12,978 bases of DNA, taken from UHGV virus genome UHGV-1798460. One strand, 5' to 3'. Made by a program: the position numbers and the translations under genes. Under the pieces are notes generated by a model. The model ran no database searches and was not told the DNA's origin. It saw only the letters and a list, made by a program, of their open reading frames with translations. Numbering within the stretch: position 1 is the stretch's first letter; the number at the start of each line of letters is the position of its first letter. Of this stretch, positions 3,095 through 10,671 are shown in pieces. Source of the stretch: a virus.

Positions 3095-3424
3095 TCACTC
3101 TCCTTTGATGCGAATGCCAGCGACGCGTAGTGCGTGTTCTAAGTCAATCAGGCAAAGCCAACTGCCATTTTCTTTAGGTATCATGACATGTCGCTTATCA
3201 GCATTTATTGGGTGTCCATATCGAAGGTCGTAGCGAGTCGGTAATTGAACTTCCCTCGCTTCCAGTTCTGTAATGCGTTTGTTTTTAGCTTCTAGTTCAT
3301 CCAGCAGCGCCAGCACAACCTGCGGTGTGACTTTCATACGAAATGCCAGCAATTTTTGTGGTGTGGCTACTATTTTTATTGCTTCTGCCGCCTCACGCAG
3401 TGCCTGATAGTTAATTTTGGTCAT
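3095..3424 (-). CDS. Hypothetical phage protein (109 aa, coiled-coil segment)
   Basis: ATG at 3424, 1 nt after the upstream TGA, with AGGGTGA upstream. Confidence 0.55.
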   Translation of the reverse strand: MTKINYQALREAAEAIKIVATPQKLLAFRMKVTPQVVLALLDELEAKNKRITELEAREVQLPTRYDLRYGHPINADKRHVMIPKENGSWLCLIDLEHALRVAGIRIKGE

Positions 3425-3425
3425 A

Positions 3426-3725
3426 TCACATCACCCTGAAGCCGTTGCATTTACGTAAGAAATCGCAGATATAGCCCTTCATTTTTTCATGCCAATCTCG
3501 ATCATTCCCATTGCACCAACCATCAGGTGGAGTCCAGTTTTCTATCAGAGCAGCCATTTTCTTTGCTTTCGCCGGAGTAGCTGTTGCGGTATCGCAGTAA
3601 TGACGAGTGTCAACCAACGAATCCATACCATCGATATCAAGTACGCAAAACCATGTGTGATTCGGAATTCCTACAGGTGGTATTTGTTGCCCACGTCGAC
3701 GTTTATCAATAAGATATACACTCAC
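3426..3725 (-). CDS. Hypothetical phage protein (about 99 aa); start inferred at GTG 3725
   Basis: The ORF track extends to 3917, but that stretch is occupied by the Lar-like gene in another frame. AAGGAGG sits 6 nt upstream of the GTG at 3725, inside the Lar 3' end. The internal ATG at 3626 is an alternative start. Confidence 0.4.
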   Translation of the reverse strand: MSVYLIDKRRRGQQIPPVGIPNHTWFCVLDIDGMDSLVDTRHYCDTATATPAKAKKMAALIENWTPPDGWCNGNDRDWHEKMKGYICDFLRKCNGFRVM

Positions 3726-3945
3726 TGGTTGCCTCCTTTGCTCGCTGATTCCACTCAGCTCTAACCTCTGAATAAAAAATCGCGCAGTCATTTCTAGGCG
3801 CTGCATATTTGCTACCAGATTGAGCGCGACACGTACCGCATCGAACGAAATAGAATCGACCGCCAGAGCCATATTCAGGGTGATCTGCTTCGCTGGCAAC
3901 GTGCGCTGCACCGCCACAGAATGGACATGGTAGTAGGTTGCTCAT
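3706..3945 (-). CDS. Lar-family restriction alleviation protein (zinc-ribbon CPFCG...CGTC)
   Basis: ATG at 3945 with AAGGGAG 7 nt upstream and an ATGA overlap with the upstream gene stop. Product [16 protein letters not shown]...FVRCGTCRAQ resembles the Lar/Ral-type small Cys-rich proteins of Rac-like prophages. Confidence 0.6.
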   Translation of the reverse strand: MSNLLPCPFCGGAAHVASEADHPEYGSGGRFYFVRCGTCRAQSGSKYAAPRNDCAIFYSEVRAEWNQRAKEATSECISY

Positions 3946-4502
3946 GAATGCACTCCCTTGTGAAGCTGTTCCGCACAATGCAGCAGGGCGTCAGTCGCCT
4001 CTTTCACCGTAACGCAGTCGCCATCGTCCAGCCCGGACACCGACGCGTGCTTAACGAACGCCGCGCAAAGGTCATCAAACGCCTTAGCCCGGACTTCAGC
4101 CAGGAAAGCATCGGTGGCTGGGGTGTCTGATTGCATAGACTTTGCGCGATAATCATTCCACCCTCTTGCATATATGGGATTAACTTGCACTCCATCTTTT
4201 ACGCAATATGCCTGCCCTCCACGGTTGATAACCTTGATTTCGTCCATAGCGCCAGACTTCAGCCCCGCATTCTCCGCCGACAGCGCTGAAAACTTCTCGT
4301 GTGCCAACTTAACAGCCGCATCAGCCTGCTTAATTGACTCAATCGCTCTCTGTTGGTCTTCGGACAGAGCCGAAATCCTGGCCTCCGCTTCAGCAAATTT
4401 ACGCACAAGATATTCAGCGTTTGTTTCGTTAACCTTTAAATCTCGTGGGATGCATTTACCTTTCAGAAATCCATCCATCTCAATTAGTGACATTTGTTTC
4501 AT
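3942..4502 (-). CDS. Ead/Ea22-like phage early protein (186 aa; coiled-coil N-terminal half)
   Basis: ATG at 4502 in an ATGA overlap with the upstream stop. The family name is a tentative recollection; the function is unknown either way. Confidence 0.5.
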
Positions 4503-6528: not shown

Positions 6529-7497
6529 TTAGTAGGTTATTTTTGTTGCGAATACTTCGCCTTTTACGATGGCTGTTATGATATTTTTAGCAACATCTTC
6601 TGATGCACCAACCTTGATAAGGTCAGCAAGTATTTTGTTATTTACTTCTTTCCGGTGAGCTTTATCCTTTGCTCTACACTCTTCCTCTTCCTTGATTCTT
6701 TTTTCTTCTGCTATTCTGGCTTGCTCTTTTGCTTCAGCCTCGCGCCGGATTCGTTCAGCCTCCTCCTGTGCTTTTCGGCGTTCTGCTTCGATTGCCGCCT
6801 GCTTTTCTCTTTCAGCTCGTTCTGCTGCCTCTTTTGCTTCGCGCTGTGCTCGTTGCTCGGCTTCAATGCGTTCACGCTCTGCACGTTCCGCTGCGGCCTT
6901 AGCTTCTGCTTCTCGCCTTGCTGCTGCTTCAATTTCGGCTTTTGCCTTTGCTTCGGCTTCTGCTCTGGCTTTCTCTTCAGCTTCTCTTTTTAAGCGTTCT
7001 TCATGCTCTCGCTTTTCCTGCTCCGCTTTGAGTCTTGCCTCTTCTCTTTGGCGGTCAAATTCGCGATCCATCAAAATCGCTATTTCATGGTCAGACTCAA
7101 TTTGCTTTGCGAGAGCTTCAGCTGCTGCCTTAGCTTCTTCTTCGGCTTTAATCCGCGCCTGTTCCTCTTCATAATCAGTAAGAGGCTGGCGTGCCTTGGA
7201 TTTCAGCTCATCAAGGCGATCACGCACTGTCTTGCGGTTGGCATCAATTAGCTTTGGAATTTCCTTCAGTTCAGCAACAAGGTCTTTTCCAAGACCATCG
7301 AGATATGTTTTCGTCTGCGCAACTTTATACGCCAGAGAAGCGATCTCCTTTCTGCCCTTTGCCGTTGTGATATCAGGCACAAAGGACATAACTTCACGTT
7401 CAACCTTTTGAAGGATTTCTTCAATCTGGTCGGCAGACTGAAATACAGTCATTGCATTTGCTTTTTCAATAACAACTAAATCTGTTACTTCACTCAT
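6529..7497 (-). CDS. Coiled-coil protein (322 aa) with a long E/R/K/A-rich central repeat region
   Basis: Start ATG at 7497 with GGAGGA upstream. The ORF-track 5' extension to 7551 runs through the terminator hairpin and is rejected. The central 150 residues or so are almost entirely E, A, K and R. Confidence 0.65.
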   Translation of the reverse strand: MSEVTDLVVIEKANAMTVFQSADQIEEILQKVEREVMSFVPDITTAKGRKEIASLAYKVAQTKTYLDGLGKDLVAELKEIPKLIDANRKTVRDRLDELKSKARQPLTDYEEEQARIKAEEEAKAAAEALAKQIESDHEIAILMDREFDRQREEARLKAEQEKREHEERLKREAEEKARAEAEAKAKAEIEAAARREAEAKAAAERAERERIEAEQRAQREAKEAAERAEREKQAAIEAERRKAQEEAERIRREAEAKEQARIAEEKRIKEEEECRAKDKAHRKEVNNKILADLIKVGASEDVAKNIITAIVKGEVFATKITY

Positions 7498-7509
7498 ATA
7501 TCCTCCGTC

Positions 7510-7538
7510 AAAAAAATTGCCCTCACACTGGAGGGCAA
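7510..7538 (-). terminator. Intra-operon rho-independent terminator (tL-like) immediately upstream of the coiled-coil gene RBS
   Basis: On the minus strand: stem TTGCCCTC/GAGGGCAA with loop CAGTGT, followed by TTTTTTT. The T-run ends 3 nt before the GGAGGA of the next gene. Confidence 0.55.
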
Positions 7539-7672
7539 AGAAGATTTCCAATAATCAGAACAAGTCGGCTCCTGTTTAGTTACGAGCGACATTGCTCCGT
7601 GTATTCACTCGTTGGAATGAATACACAGTGCAGTGTTTATTCTGTTGTTTATGCCAAAAATAAAGGCCACCA

Positions 7673-7986: not shown

Positions 7987-8211
7987 TCATAATTCACTCT
8001 TCAATACTTCCAACTTACTAATCGCCGATAGATATCCGCGCTGATAGGGCATCATCATTCCTTCGAGCTTGCCACTTCTTAACTCCTCCCTGAGCAATTG
8101 TATTGCTTGATCAATAACCTCTGCCTTAGCGTCCTTTATGGCTTGCTTTCGGGGCTTTGCTTTCTGCTTTGACAGATTTCTCAAGCATGATGGAATGTAT
8201 GTCTGATTCAT
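7987..8211 (-). CDS. Hypothetical basic protein (74 aa)
   Basis: ATG at 8211 with GAGG 6 nt upstream, immediately after the upstream TAA. Confidence 0.5.
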   Translation of the reverse strand: MNQTYIPSCLRNLSKQKAKPRKQAIKDAKAEVIDQAIQLLREELRSGKLEGMMMPYQRGYLSAISKLEVLKSEL

Positions 8212-8214
8212 CAC

Positions 8215-8418
8215 TTACCTCGCTGTAACCTGCTTACTTGTACGATGACCAGCTGCGAAAAGCGCAACTTCTGGCAGGCAGACAGTACCACCTTCAACTT
8301 CCTTCTGAAGCGTTCCGGCAAGCGAAATGGCTCTTGAAACACGTTTACTGGCTCCGTCCATGATTTTCATGAAAGCCATATAGTGCATTGGCTTCTTTCC
8401 TTGCTTGTTTGGCATCAT
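8215..8418 (-). CDS. Small ORF at the position normally held by the N antiterminator; start uncertain and no arginine-rich motif
   Basis: The ORF overlaps the HNH gene 3' end by 74 nt if it starts at 8418. Candidate ATGs at 8388 (weak AAGGAAAG) and 8361. It is the second gene after PL. Confidence 0.3.
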   Translation of the reverse strand: MMPNKQGKKPMHYMAFMKIMDGASKRVSRAISLAGTLQKEVEGGTVCLPEVALFAAGHRTSKQVTAR

Positions 8419-8878
8419 CTAAAAGTTTGAATGAGCCTAGGTATTTTCGTTTTCCATCCACAGTTATCGATGCAACATAAAACCCATGCTCTTTTCTTGC
8501 TTCAACACCTGTAACTCCAGTTGATGAAGATGATTTTAAAGGCATGTTTTTCATATTCTCTTTGAAAGAAACGCTTCTTAAATTGGAGATTCTGTTGTCA
8601 TCCTTAACGCCGTTTATGTGATCAATCACATCAGGCCAGTAGCCATGCACGTAAAGCCATGCAAGTCTGTGAGACTTAAATTTTTTACCTCCAATATTTA
8701 TTCTCAGATAACCCTTGTTGTCAGGTGAGCCAGCCTTTTTACCTGGATACTTCTTGTTCCACGTCAAGGCAGCTCTGTTATCCGCAAACAAATGCTTTGC
8801 TCTCGGCTTCCAATAAAAGTCACCACTCACAGGATTGTAATAAAGAATCTCCCTTACAGACGCTTGAGTAAGATCCAC
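8345..8878 (-). CDS. HNH endonuclease with C-terminal AP2 DNA-binding domain (free-standing homing-endonuclease type)
   Basis: GTG start at 8878 with AGGAGG 5 nt upstream. HNH_3-type motif HRLAWLYVHGYWPDVIDHINGVKDDNRISNLR, followed by an AP2-like GVTGVEARKEHGFYVASITVDGKRKYLGSF. Confidence 0.8.
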   Translation of the reverse strand: MDLTQASVREILYYNPVSGDFYWKPRAKHLFADNRAALTWNKKYPGKKAGSPDNKGYLRINIGGKKFKSHRLAWLYVHGYWPDVIDHINGVKDDNRISNLRSVSFKENMKNMPLKSSSSTGVTGVEARKEHGFYVASITVDGKRKYLGSFKLLDDAKQARKEANALYGFHENHGRSQ

Positions 8879-9016
8879 TTAAACCTCCTAACAAAAACAC
8901 TTCAATAACCCTCCGGTTATGGAAATGTTCTTTTGTAGTGAGCAGCATTGCCGTTCATCCTGAACCCGCCGCGCTCCCGACGCATGGTTTAATGTCGCGC
9001 CGTTCGACATGGCTTA

Positions 9017-9045
9017 ACTATATCCAAAGCTATTATTGCTGTAAA
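9017..9045 (-). promoter_or_regulatory. PL-like early-left promoter (TTTACA-17 nt-TATAGT on the minus strand)
   Basis: Minus-strand -35 TTTACA at 9045-9040 and -10 TATAGT at 9022-9017 with a 17-nt spacer. An operator half-site lies in the spacer. Confidence 0.55.
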
Positions 9046-9146: not shown

Positions 9147-9167
9147 AAACCCGCAAAAAGCGGGTTT
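9147..9167 (-). terminator. Rho-independent terminator downstream of the repressor gene
   Basis: Stem AAACCCGC/GCGGGTTT with loop AAAAA; on the minus strand it is followed by TTTATT. Confidence 0.6.
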
Positions 9168-9184: not shown

Positions 9185-9916
9185 TTAGTAGTCAACTACA
9201 GACCACCAGAAGATTCTTCCGATGATCTCGATATCGCTTAGATTCTTTTCTTCTTGTGGGTATTCCAGTGAGTTAAAGCTTCTAATGCTTACCTTGTCAG
9301 GCCCTGATCGAAAGAGAATCTTAATGCGTTTCCAACCGTTCTCGTTAATGGCGTAAATCTTTCCGTCAACTATTTTCTTATCGTTGGTGTTAACAGCAAC
9401 TGTTGTTCCATCAGGAATGTTTGGCTCCATGCTGTTGCCACGAGCCGGAAAACAAACAACCCCGCTTCCATCACTGTTCGCGCCAACTCTGCGAAGGGTT
9501 GATTTGGAGAAGCGCAACATAAAGCCGTTGTGATCTTCATCAATCACCCGACCATCCCCGCATGCAAACTCAATATCTTTAAGGTAAGGAATTTCAACTT
9601 CATCACCTCTTAAAGGCGTTCCTCCATCCCATGGGTCCAAATATCCCCACGTGCTTTCATGAGGAATAGAAGATTTTGGATTATAAGGTTCAACTCCCTC
9701 ATCACGCATTGGCCCAGTTCCATCGGAAAGCCATTCCGTACGAACTCCAAGCACTTTTGATATTTCAAAAAGTTTGCGCGTATTGCGTGTTTTTCCAGAC
9801 GTAAGTTTCCAGACGCTTGGCTGAGACATGCCAACAGCATTGCCAAGAGAAGCCTGAGTAAACCCAGCCTGATCCATCGCGTATGTAAGCCTTTGAGAAA
9901 AAGTATCTAGTTTCAT
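9185..9916 (-). CDS. cI: CI-like phage repressor (N-terminal HTH, C-terminal S24 LexA-type autopeptidase domain)
   Basis: HTH region QASLGNAVGMSQPSVWKLTSGK; S24 motifs GNSMEP (Ser nucleophile) and a downstream KR. Divergent from cro across an operator region. Confidence 0.8.
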   Translation of the reverse strand: MKLDTFSQRLTYAMDQAGFTQASLGNAVGMSQPSVWKLTSGKTRNTRKLFEISKVLGVRTEWLSDGTGPMRDEGVEPYNPKSSIPHESTWGYLDPWDGGTPLRGDEVEIPYLKDIEFACGDGRVIDEDHNGFMLRFSKSTLRRVGANSDGSGVVCFPARGNSMEPNIPDGTTVAVNTNDKKIVDGKIYAINENGWKRIKILFRSGPDKVSIRSFNSLEYPQEEKNLSDIEIIGRIFWWSVVDY

Positions 9917-9957: not shown

Positions 9958-9984
9958 AAAGCTATTTACTTTCTGAATAGCTTT
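9958..9984. promoter_or_regulatory. OR operator: perfect inverted repeat AAAGCTATT-N9-AATAGCTTT overlapping PR
   Basis: Read directly. Extra partial half-sites (AGCTATT-like) at 9937-9943 and 9985-9991 suggest a tripartite operator. Confidence 0.6.
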
Positions 9985-9993
9985 GGCTATTAT
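9965..9993 (+). promoter_or_regulatory. PR-like early-right promoter (TTTACT-17 nt-TATTAT)
   Basis: -35 at 9965-9970, -10 at 9988-9993; the operator half-site lies within the spacer, mirroring PL. Confidence 0.5.
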
Positions 9994-10024
9994 CCTGATT
10001 GTGAATTCAGCAGGAGTTATTTTT

Positions 10025-10255
10025 ATGGTCAACAAGGCTATTAAAGCGGCTATTGACTCAGTAGGAAGTCAGCAAAAGTTAGCTGATGCCTGCGGTGTTA
10101 AGCAGCCGTCTGTATGGGCTTGGTTGCATGGGAAGAAAAGGGTATCCGCTGAAAATGCCAAGCGCATTGAAATGGCTACCAATGGAAGCGTCCCTGCATA
10201 CCTGATTCGCCCTGATTTATCCGCTTTGTTCCCCAATCCGAACAAAGCAGCTTAA
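10025..10255 (+). CDS. cro: Cro-like repressor (76 aa)
   Basis: ATG at 10025 with AGGAG upstream. HTH QQKLADACGVKQPSVWAWLHGKK; divergent from the repressor. Confidence 0.75.
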   Translation: MVNKAIKAAIDSVGSQQKLADACGVKQPSVWAWLHGKKRVSAENAKRIEMATNGSVPAYLIRPDLSALFPNPNKAA

Positions 10256-10374
10256 TAAAGCAAATTTTTATACCGAACGGCCCGGTATACGGTCGGGTGC
10301 CCGGCGTGGTCATGGATGACTGTCAATGGTGCACAATAAAAAACCAAATTATTTACCTATGGAAATAGTAAGAA

Positions 10375-10671
10375 ATGGAACAAACAAGTTACAGCAAACT
10401 ATCCCAGCGTGACGTTGATCGCGCAGAAACCGATTTACTCATCAACCTGTCAACGCTTACCCAGCGCGGTCTGGCAAAGATGATTGGCTGTCATGAATCG
10501 AAGATAAGCAGAACGGACTGGAGATTTATTGCTTCGGTCTTGTGTGCTTTCGGAATGGCATCAGACATCAGTCCGATTAGCAGGGCTTTTAAGTATGCGC
10601 TTGATGGACTCACCAATAAAAAACGCCCGGCGGCAACCGAGCGTTCTGAACAAATCCAGATGGAATTTTAA
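10375..10671 (+). CDS. cII: CII transcriptional activator
   Basis: The C-terminus TNKKRPAATERSEQIQMEF matches the lambda CII C-terminus as I recall it; HTH LAKMIGCHESKISR. The start is not well supported by an RBS. Confidence 0.8.
   Translation: MEQTSYSKLSQRDVDRAETDLLINLSTLTQRGLAKMIGCHESKISRTDWRFIASVLCAFGMASDISPISRAFKYALDGLTNKKRPAATERSEQIQMEF

Follow-up and report, generated by a model that had tools for sequence, protein, structure and literature searches.

The window analysed here, a stretch of 12,978 nucleotides of the virus genome UHGV-1798460, raises the question of how a lambdoid early-left operon achieves antitermination when its first gene encodes an HNH endonuclease and an intact N gene is missing. 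An operon of this kind looks like an anomaly, but the answer is already known and leaves the known mechanism unchanged: the window very probably covers the part of a lambdoid prophage that governs immunity and early control, with put RNA antitermination of the HK022 type in place of N and nut. This reading derives from the near-identity of its put sites to those of HK022.

Layout of the early-control region

The region has the following features on the minus and plus strands:

9185 to 9916, minus strand: cI-type repressor with HTH and S24 peptidase domains (Pfam Peptidase_S24, E = 3.7e-15; HTH_3, E = 7.6e-5)
9147 to 9167, minus strand: intrinsic terminator 3' of cI (8-bp stem AAACCCGC...GCGGGTTT and T run in the terminator scan)
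9017 to 9045, minus strand: predicted promoter PL (-35 TTTACA at 9045-9040, 17-nt spacer, -10 TATAGT at 9022-9017; 10/12 matches in the promoter scan)
8939 to 9010, minus strand: putL antiterminator RNA element (HK022 positions 1-73)
8891 to 8932, minus strand: A/U-rich long hairpin and U run directly 3' of putL, a candidate pause or terminator element
8345 to 8892, minus strand: HNH_3 endonuclease cassette (SD AGGAGG at 8889-8884, GTG start at 8878, stop at 8347-8345)
8215 to 8349, minus strand: N', the last 44 codons and the stop codon of an N gene of the P22/mEpX2 type (Pfam, PHROG, tblastn)
7987 to 8214, minus strand: orf75 (PHROG 5305, function unknown, E = 5.5e-37)
7684 to 7663, minus strand: second terminator-like site of the PL operon (terminator scan)
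7517 to 7538, minus strand: strong intrinsic terminator of the PL operon (terminator scan)
9965 to 9993, plus strand: promoter-like site PR (TTTACT, 17-nt spacer, TATTAT; 9/12 matches in the promoter scan; +1 near 10000)
10025 to 10255, plus strand: cro-type regulator (Pfam YdaS_toxin, E = 3.4e-19; P22_Cro, E = 3.3e-7)
10271 to 10336, plus strand: putR antiterminator RNA element, between cro and cII, at a distance of about 270 nt from the PR start
10375 to 10671, plus strand: cII (Pfam Phage_CII, E = 7.8e-35)

The cI-type repressor is annotated in relatives as an XRE family transcriptional regulator, with a product of 243 aa there too. For the cro-type regulator we use the ATG at 10025, which gives the 231-nt CDS annotated in relatives; the mechanical ORF begins at 9983. 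The predicted PL has the register annotated for the PL of HK022 and O276 (-35, -10, 6 nt, A at +1), and its +1, inferred at 9010, is position 1 of putL. The first ORF downstream of this promoter is the HNH ORF (8878-8345, minus strand), and the promoter scan returned no second promoter-like site in the interval between the two. At the other end of the remnant N', the start of orf75 overlaps the N' stop (TAAGTGATG) and the SD of orf75 lies inside the 3' end of N'. The same gene is found downstream of N or N' in mEpX2, PEC122, S56 and Z1323CEC0005. The earlier note had placed a terminator at 7510-7538, which the consensus scan supports at 7538-7517. Both this terminator and the site at 7684-7663 must be read through for transcription to reach the downstream early-left genes.

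The put elements of the two leaders

The leaders had been described as lacking a convincing boxB, and as far as nut sites are concerned this description stands: boxA has 12 one-mismatch matches in the window where 12.06 are expected, with 0 exact matches and none within the leaders, and the boxB search of the window likewise remains at chance level. The leaders are not empty, however, as putL and putR had been missed. By megablast, putL is 92.8% identical to the putL of HK022, HK75 and O276, and 98.6% identical to that of phiEt88. Aligned with HK022, it is one nucleotide shorter at the 5' end, identical at positions 6-73 apart from 17 and 19, and its homology breaks off at 73/74. Within the structure, putR differs from the annotated putR of O276/HK022 by a single substitution, located in the loop of stem II, and 100% identical copies of it exist at 8 other loci. 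Published positions in HK022 are just after the PL start for putL and about 270 nt after the PR start for putR (PMC9378689); the positions in the window are the same, with putL beginning at the predicted +1 of PL.

The published fold of HK022 put comprises two stems, of which stem II spans positions 36-72 with a bulged U68 (PMC9378689). The cryo-EM study describes helix a (3-7:15-19) and helix b (10-14:30-34) in addition to stem II (PMC9378689); of the pairs indexed from it, 23/23 are standard pairs in putL and in putR of the window. Helix a of putL differs from that of HK022 by two compensatory swaps from A-U to U-A, and further both-side pair changes distinguish putL from putR. Since an exact 39-mer of stem II served to gather the loci, covariation in putL is confined to helix a. 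Pairs were counted by explicit per-family indices, since a MAFFT alignment of putL and putR mis-registers the upper part of stem II, whose loops measure 3 nt in one element and 4 nt in the other, and breaks up helix b of putR. The residues A9, U28, G35, G45, A64 and U68, which mutagenesis identified as required in HK022 put (PMC9378689), are all present in the putL of the window, and the -10-like element NANNAT described at +23 to +28 of putL (PMC9378689) reads AACCAT, identical to HK022.

Thermodynamic folding does not single out either element, with RNAfold z-scores of about 0 for putL and putR. Non-canonical pairs and a triplex, both part of the published structure, lie beyond the RNAfold model. 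Folding energy alone thus speaks neither for nor against put, hence our use of the cryo-EM description. A search of the whole window against Rfam (E <= 1) matched no put family. Judged by sequence, position and pairing pattern, the leaders contain intact putL and putR of the HK022 type, and of the two possibilities that the earlier note had left standing, namely a damaged antiterminator locus or a mechanism other than N, the latter proves to be the correct one.

In HK022, the put RNA adopts a V shape of two stems and attaches to the polymerase from which it emerged, at the beta' zinc-binding domain; the put-bound polymerase resists pausing as well as intrinsic and Rho-dependent terminators, and a phage protein is unnecessary (PMC9378689). 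Host rpoC mutations in this domain that block HK022 put are described in the same paper. By analogy, the put RNAs would act here as in HK022. Once the cI repressor is lifted, polymerase starting at PL would make a transcript whose initial 72 nt are putL, and polymerase starting at PR would transcribe putR after cro. Transcription by the putL-modified polymerase would then extend beyond the hairpin (8932-8891) and both terminators (7684-7663, 7538-7517), and the putR-modified polymerase would continue into cII and the replication genes. The slot behind putL contains the I-HmuI-like HNH_3 cassette, followed by the 44-codon N remnant.

The arrangement of HK022, HK75 and O276 (PL-putL-nun and PR-cro-putR-cII) shares with the window the near-identical put elements, the distances to PL and PR, the divergent layout around cI and cro, and the absence of N and nut. 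The differences concern the repressor (a 708-nt cI in HK022, the 243-aa S24 repressor in the window) and the stretch behind putL, where HK022 has nun and a different spacer, whereas the window has a hairpin of its own, the HNH gene and the N fossil, without nun. The N-nut systems of lambda, P22 and H-19B follow the same logic, with processive antitermination established shortly after PL and PR, and occupy the same genomic place. From a P22/mEpX2-type N the window retains the last 44 codons, but it lacks the N-terminal half of N, the arginine-rich motif, boxA and boxB. The effector would be a cis-acting RNA in place of their protein-RNA-Nus complex.

For the hairpin that follows putL, RNAfold gives dG = -19.8 kcal/mol and z = -5.2, and 0/200 shuffles fold as well. 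It also occurs in two loci without HNH (L042 and L059), where one C-G pair is replaced by T-A. Two sub-threshold matches of the Rfam scan were rejected as spurious: mir-7927 (28 bits against a threshold of 75 bits) reflects this hairpin, and the terminator-like Trp_leader match is the terminator of cI.

The endonuclease cassette and its place in related phages

The HNH ORF matches HNH_3 (Pfam PF13392, E = 2.8e-15, residues 70-109) and PHROG 99 (E = 2.8e-66), and phmmer aligns its residues 55-149, including DH..N..N, with the homing endonuclease I-HmuI (1U3E, E = 3.7e-5). The catalytic (His-Me finger) motif is present. These matches, together with the promoter scan, bear out the earlier claim that an HNH_3 gene is the first gene after PL. 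The AP2 label (PF00847) that the earlier note had given to this ORF stays putative: a search with the C-terminal 71 aa alone gives a Pfam E-value of 0.11 and 13.2 bits against a cut-off of 33.3 bits. A single-sequence AF2 model of poor overall quality (pLDDT 44.5) places a beta-beta-beta-alpha arrangement at the C-terminus at pLDDT 63-70; Foldseek of this model against PDB yields nothing at E < 0.05, with AP2 entries at E of about 0.6-1. NCBIfam holds no match for HNH, N' or Nun.

Most likely, the HNH gene is a selfish, free-standing gene of the homing type, predicted to be expressed first from the early-left operon. Free-standing homing endonucleases are exemplified by the seg and mob genes of T4. 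As is the case for free-standing HNH homing endonucleases, the cassette is compact, consisting only of a ribosome-binding site and the ORF; it is found in some related phages and not in others, none of the latter showing an exact empty site. I-HmuI of phage SPO1 shares the HNH_3 catalytic core with sequence similarity, while the window gene is without an intron. The boundaries of the cassette follow from two comparisons: homology to the relatives L042 and L059, which lack HNH, ends at 8893, and the intact mEpX2 N gene is matched from about 8349-8350 onwards. Between these points the sequence is conserved to 96-99% across differing immunity backgrounds and divergent flanks, and it is missing from close relatives.

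Salmonella phage UPF_BP1 (KX776161, Lederbergvirus), deposited as a complete genome, has the same putL-hairpin-HNH-N' block at 96-99% identity, with the gene order as in the window, and so do about 8 E. coli prophages (A357, LWY24, CUVET21-PYO5, GPEC1446 and others). In this group the N' alleles differ from that of the window, and putL is unannotated in the records. The immunity flanks differ too, with a LexA-type cI of 708 nt in GPEC1446 and CUVET21-PYO5. Escherichia phage APC_JM3.2, likewise deposited as a complete genome, has putL and a short N'. The prophage of E. coli Z1323CEC0005 has the same cI, cro and PL as the window, and nutL (boxB GCGCTGACAAAGCGC) with an intact N of 127 aa replace the putL-hairpin-HNH-N' block. 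On this comparison, the difference between the two is a module swap from the +1 of PL to the end of N, rather than an insertion of HNH into N. Natural hybrids exist as well, namely nutL-N with putR and putL-nutL-N. These comparative data add some detail on the exchange of antitermination modules among lambdoid phages, with boundaries at the +1 of PL and the 3' end of N.

The gene that follows putL varies: it may be Nun (in 8 other putL loci), an HNH of the window type or of one of three further lineages, an ORF of 147 aa or of 53 aa, or others. Directly 3' of putL there are at least 4 HNH lineages, that of the window and three more with 59%, 40% and 33% amino-acid identity to it. The stretch from putL to the conserved end of N is a hypervariable cargo slot (the 'nun slot') that has repeatedly been host to HNH endonucleases.

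A closer relationship between cassette and slot is conceivable, though we consider it rather improbable. The HNH genes 3' of putL would stand in a functional partnership with the put module, and their homing target might be the near-invariant DNA of put or the early leader, or else the 3' half of N, which is conserved. Upon co-infection, phages of the nutL-N type and of the same immunity type would become putL-HNH-N' by co-conversion of the flanks. If this were true, a selfish nuclease would drive the swap of one antitermination system for another; Z1323CEC0005 would represent the state before and the window type the state after, the difference being exactly the stretch from the +1 of PL to the end of N.

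The N remnant and its interpretation

The earlier note had found no recognisable N in this region. An intact N gene is indeed missing from the window, in which tblastn finds no full-length N; a remnant of N is recognisable, however. With the intact N of mEpX2 as query, tblastn returns residues 44-87 only (8349-8218, 93% identity, E = 2e-24), and the N-terminal half of N gives chance matches only (E >= 2.6). Nun does not exceed chance level in the window either (best E 1.9). The small ORF at 8418-8215 matches Pfam N_peptide (PF25694, E = 5e-14) at profile positions 48-100 of 100 only, as well as PHROG 271 (E = 2.2e-10), and its first approximately 23 residues are the 3' end of HNH read in another frame. 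The faint likeness of this ORF to the C-terminal region of P22-type N proteins, which the earlier note had mentioned but kept out of its call, is hence genuine, and the statement that it lacks an arginine-rich motif holds for the ORF and for the window as a whole.

We infer that N' is a non-functional fossil, the leftover of a recombination of a put phage with a phage of the N type. Its persistence is probably explained by the ribosome-binding site and the start context that it provides for the next gene, together with a role as recombination linker. The alternative, that N' is a functional stand-alone peptide whose RNAP-binding C-terminal module is kept to assist or modulate the put-modified polymerase, or to hinder competing N-dependent phages, appears very unlikely to us. 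It could draw on a reading frame that is open in all window-type loci, on a stub beginning at about codons 43-45 that recurs in three upstream contexts (the window HNH, the 59%-identical HNH of L032 and an unrelated segment in L013), and on the 27-codon stub of PEC122 and S56, which PGAP annotates as a gene and which has a strong SD with TTG as start codon. Against this, the truncation points vary among loci (at about codons 43-45, 47, 58-61 and 66) and the stubs derive from at least 2 N allele families. In L041 an SD and TTG open a different frame from that of L001, so the peptide sequence is not conserved; the stub in L032 is without any start codon and located downstream of a strong terminator; and that of UPF_BP1 is a chimera with a different tail. 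Put in HK022 furthermore requires no phage protein (PMC9378689).

A still smaller chance is left to the reading, raised by the earlier note, that the endonuclease invaded and truncated a functional N gene, leaving a prophage defective in early antitermination. The truncation as such is real, with only a few bases between the stop codon of HNH and the point where N homology starts, and the window offers neither an arginine-rich motif nor a nut site. But intact putL and putR stand in for the nut sites, and the flank upstream of HNH consists of putL and the hairpin, with no 5' half of N. The nutL-N relative of identical cI, cro and PL differs from the window all the way from the +1 of PL to the end of N, and N stubs cut at about codons 47, 58-61 and 66 are found behind putL in phages without HNH. 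The insertion boundaries that a comparison with HNH-less relatives was expected to reveal did not take the form of an exact empty site in any of them, and a simple insertion was rejected: the HNH-less relatives also differ in the length of the adjoining N', which is shorter and of another allele in L042 and L059, and PEC122, S56 and APC_JM3.2 have the HK022 spacer after putL. The orders putL-HNH-N' in UPF_BP1 and putL-N' in APC_JM3.2, both from deposited genomes, also tend to argue against a defect. That N is split or interrupted by an intron, with HNH in a self-splicing intron or between reassembling halves and a full N still being made, has practically no probability: HNH genes often sit in group I introns and a small upstream ORF (9010-8888) contains 'GARRVQDERQ', but no group I or II intron family is matched in Rfam (E <= 1, whole window), the upstream ORF is putL read as protein and turns up at all put loci, the Nun-bearing ones among them, and tblastn finds no N-terminal half of N anywhere in the window.

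The putL core is found in 55 IMG/VR contigs, most of which show putL and putR flanking the immunity region in divergent orientation, while some contigs end before putR; putL is further present in 38 complete E. coli genomes and unannotated in all five matches listed. Phages of the put type are easily overlooked, as there is no Rfam family and putL is unannotated in the matches listed. We note that annotation pipelines label the N stub 'transcriptional antitermination N peptide', which invites the wrong conclusion.

Layout of the early-left operon

The minus strand of the window has the layout of a lambdoid early-left operon, consisting of the following features.

Features of the early-left operon
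9916-9185, minus: cI-type repressor (Peptidase_S24 and HTH_3)
9167-9147, minus: intrinsic terminator at the end of cI (terminator scan)
9045-9040 and 9022-9017, minus: PL, a sigma-70 promoter with -35 TTTACA and -10 TATAGT, 10/12 matches (promoter scan)
8878-8345, minus: HNH_3 endonuclease ORF, first after PL (Pfam, PHROG 99, I-HmuI similarity)
8418-8215, minus: ORF overlapping the HNH 3' end (Pfam N_peptide PF25694)
7684-7663 and 7538-7517, minus: terminator-like sites (terminator scan)

The first ORF after PL encodes, as the earlier note had proposed, an HNH_3 endonuclease, with matches to Pfam (E = 2.8e-15) and PHROG 99 (E = 2.8e-66) and similarity to I-HmuI, a solved homing endonuclease (E = 3.7e-5). 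The HNH_3 part of the proposed label HNH_3-AP2 is confirmed; AP2 is unproven. That no recognisable N antiterminator is present holds for an intact gene: tblastn with the intact 87-aa N protein of phage mEpX2 recovers only residues 44-87 (8349-8218, 93% identity, E = 2e-24) and no full-length N elsewhere in the window, and neither the N-terminal half of N nor HK022 Nun is found by tblastn across the whole window (best E at least 1.9). It does not hold for a remnant, as the ORF at 8418-8215 matches N_peptide PF25694 (E = 5e-14) over profile positions 48-100 of 100 only. The faint likeness to the C-terminus of P22-type N proteins recorded for this ORF is hence real, and the 3'-terminal stub is denoted N' in the following. 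The leaders indeed lack the nut elements boxA and boxB, with boxA-like strings at chance level in the window (12 versus 12.06 expected) and 0 in the leaders, but they are not empty: they contain putL and putR, near-identical to the antiterminator RNA elements of HK022.

The window is an HK022-type put phage that differs from HK022 in its immunity region and carries an HNH endonuclease gene in place of nun, in the slot between putL and the N end. Judged from sequence, the non-N mechanism that had been raised as an alternative is an already known one, HK022-type put. The 340-aa ORF at 6529-7551 (minus) starts just past the strong terminator at 7538-7517, and its PL-driven expression should therefore need antitermination. 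This ORF belongs to PHROGs 1376 and 21365, both of unknown function; its central repeat region, rich in Glu, Ala, Lys and Arg, is highly charged, and relatives label the ORF 'coiled-coil' or 'TolA'.

Position, structure and predicted action of the put elements

In a megablast search of phage genomes, window 9016-8936 matches the putL annotated in HK022, HK75 and O276 (92.8%) and has a closer match in Erwinia phage phiEt88 (98.6%). Alignment with O276/HK022 shows HK022 putL positions 6-16, 18 and 20-73 unchanged in the leader, the homology breaking exactly at position 73/74 (window 8939/8938). The HK022 PL annotation in O276 and the promoter scan place the inferred PL +1 at 9010, on position 1 of putL. 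The cro-cII spacer aligns with annotated putR, with one substitution within the structure, located in the stem II loop; putR starts at 10271, ~270 nt from the PR start. The put geometry of HK022 has the same placement (PMC9378689). No put family is among the Rfam 15 matches for 8939-9010 and 10271-10336, and the two sites are hence without a curated covariance-model score.

[quoted passage not shown] The RNA further contains an A9-G35 platform, the critical residues U28, G35, G45, A64 and U68, and a -10-like NANNAT element of putL at +23..+28 (PMC9378689). We indexed 23 pairs from this description, and a scripted check finds standard pairs at 23/23 in both putL and putR of the window. A9, G35, the critical residues and the NANNAT element of putL are all as in HK022. 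The window putL differs from HK022 putL solely by two two-sided changes in helix a (A3-U19 and A5-U17 to U-A) and the loss of one 5' nucleotide; comparison of putL with putR reveals additional compensatory pairs. The RNAfold energies (z about 0) are unremarkable, which is expected when a fold owes its stability to non-canonical pairs and a triplex as well as to the polymerase.

HK022 put renders polymerase terminator-resistant without any phage protein (PMC9378689). By analogy, given the near-identity, the put RNAs of the window would attach to the transcribing polymerase at its beta' zinc-binding domain, and the polymerase would then resist pausing as well as intrinsic and Rho-dependent terminators, again without a phage protein. 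Readthrough targets on the left would be the terminator-like sites at 7684-7663 and 7538-7517 and, immediately 3' of putL, a very stable A/U-rich hairpin followed by a U run (8932-8891, minus; dG -19.8, z -5.2), possibly the first pause or termination site on which put acts. Each downstream module has its own hairpin and T run behind putL (HK022 type, L032 type, L013/L038 type); loci L042 and L059 share the window-type hairpin, with C-G replaced by T-A as a compensatory change.

Exchange of modules behind putL

The earlier note had alternatively suggested that the endonuclease truncated N and left a defective prophage. This view lacks support: both put sites are intact, Salmonella phage UPF_BP1 (deposited as a complete genome) has the same gene order, and putL with a short N' occurs in the likewise deposited complete genome of Escherichia phage APC_JM3.2. 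The A357 prophage shares 99.4% identity with the window across the immunity/early stretch, and E. coli Z1323CEC0005 (L066, NZ_CP148474.1) shares its cI and cro proteins with A357 and has a PL sequence matching the window. Directly past 'TAAGCCAT' (PL +1), Z1323CEC0005 carries a nut-type leader with boxB GCGCTGACAAAGCGC (L066 1423-1437) and an intact, H-19B-like N of 127 aa with an arginine-rich motif (L066 1603-1986), and rejoins the window at the last N codons and the start of orf75, the next gene after N'. The differing unit is therefore the entire segment from PL +1 to the N 3' end, nutL and N versus putL, hairpin, HNH and N', which rules out a simple HNH insertion into N. The right operon of Z1323CEC0005 has a putR identical to that of the window (L066 1-115, reverse strand), making L066 1-2000 a natural hybrid of nutL-N left and putR right. 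In the PGAP annotation its N is represented just by the final 69 nt, labelled a partial 'regulator'.

The exact 39-nt putL core matched 55 IMG/VR viral contigs, most of which, where they reach far enough, have divergent putL and putR around the immunity region. The first gene behind putL is highly variable across putL loci.

First gene behind putL
Nun: 8 loci
Window-type HNH: 12 fetched loci (GenBank, RefSeq, IMG/VR; some the same phage)
Three further HNH lineages at the same offset from putL: 59%, 40% and 33% identity
147-aa ORF: 9 loci
53-aa Cys-rich ORF: 5 loci
Singleton genes: many

In IMGVR_UViG_2858461253_000003 (L027, ~3180-4250), the operon that begins with putL continues with a boxA-like TGCTCTTTAACA, then a hairpin and an N-like ORF of full length (92 aa, with NAKRRKYLK in its basic N-terminus), apparently a tandem of putL and a nutL-N unit. 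A contig scan of representative genomes with a degenerate pattern covering putL and putR (L068-L077) matches Escherichia, Kluyvera, Siccibacter, Pantoea stewartii and Winslowiella, so that put phages span Enterobacteriaceae and Erwiniaceae; three actinobacterial matches are probably chance GC-rich ones.

The HNH cassette and the N remnant

The HNH cassette is compact (AGGAGG at 8889-8884, GTG at 8878, stop ending at 8345). Homology to the HNH-less, hairpin-sharing loci L042 and L059 stops at 8893, and homology to intact N starts at ~8349, beside the HNH stop. Among 5426 complete E. coli genomes, 38 contain putL and 8 the cassette, which adjoins putL wherever the flank was inspected. At putL itself, 5/5 listed matches of the 38 have no annotated feature. 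IS100 interrupts the cassette in two genomes; in E. coli Z1323CEC0009 (L007, 600-2600) istA/istB lie within the 5' part of the gene and separate putL plus the ~34 initial HNH codons from a truncated HNH ORF. That HNH endonucleases next to putL target the conserved leader or N 3' sequence for homing, and in this way spread the put module into N-type phages, is a speculative and rather unlikely scenario.

We rate N' as a fossil. A functional peptide would be in line with a frame open in all window-type loci and with stubs beginning near codons 43-45 in three upstream contexts. However, stubs of other put phages are truncated at about codons 47, 58-61 and 66 and belong to at least two N allele families; in L041 the SD and TTG that open the PEC122 stub open the alternative frame; the L032 stub lacks a start codon and lies behind a strong terminator; and the UPF_BP1 stub is chimeric, its tail being different. 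We consider a peptide function highly improbable. The 3' end of N' holds the SD of the next conserved gene and overlaps its start (TAAGTGATG), and is also the joining point of different modules, which sufficiently explains its retention as a fossil.

PGAP names N stubs of 20-27 codons 'transcriptional antitermination N peptide'. The UPF_BP1 stub (L004/L053) is window-like up to ...RQKEVE and then ends in ...RMKLSSKPLI, a tail that presumably resembles the C-terminus of lambda/phage 21 N. The +1 frame of N' contains a 43-codon ORF (8215-8342, minus) with a GTG start 3 nt past the HNH stop and a TGA overlapping the orf75 start; it is this frame that the L041 SD and TTG open. The arrangement could form a translational-coupling chain from HNH via the 43-codon ORF to orf75.
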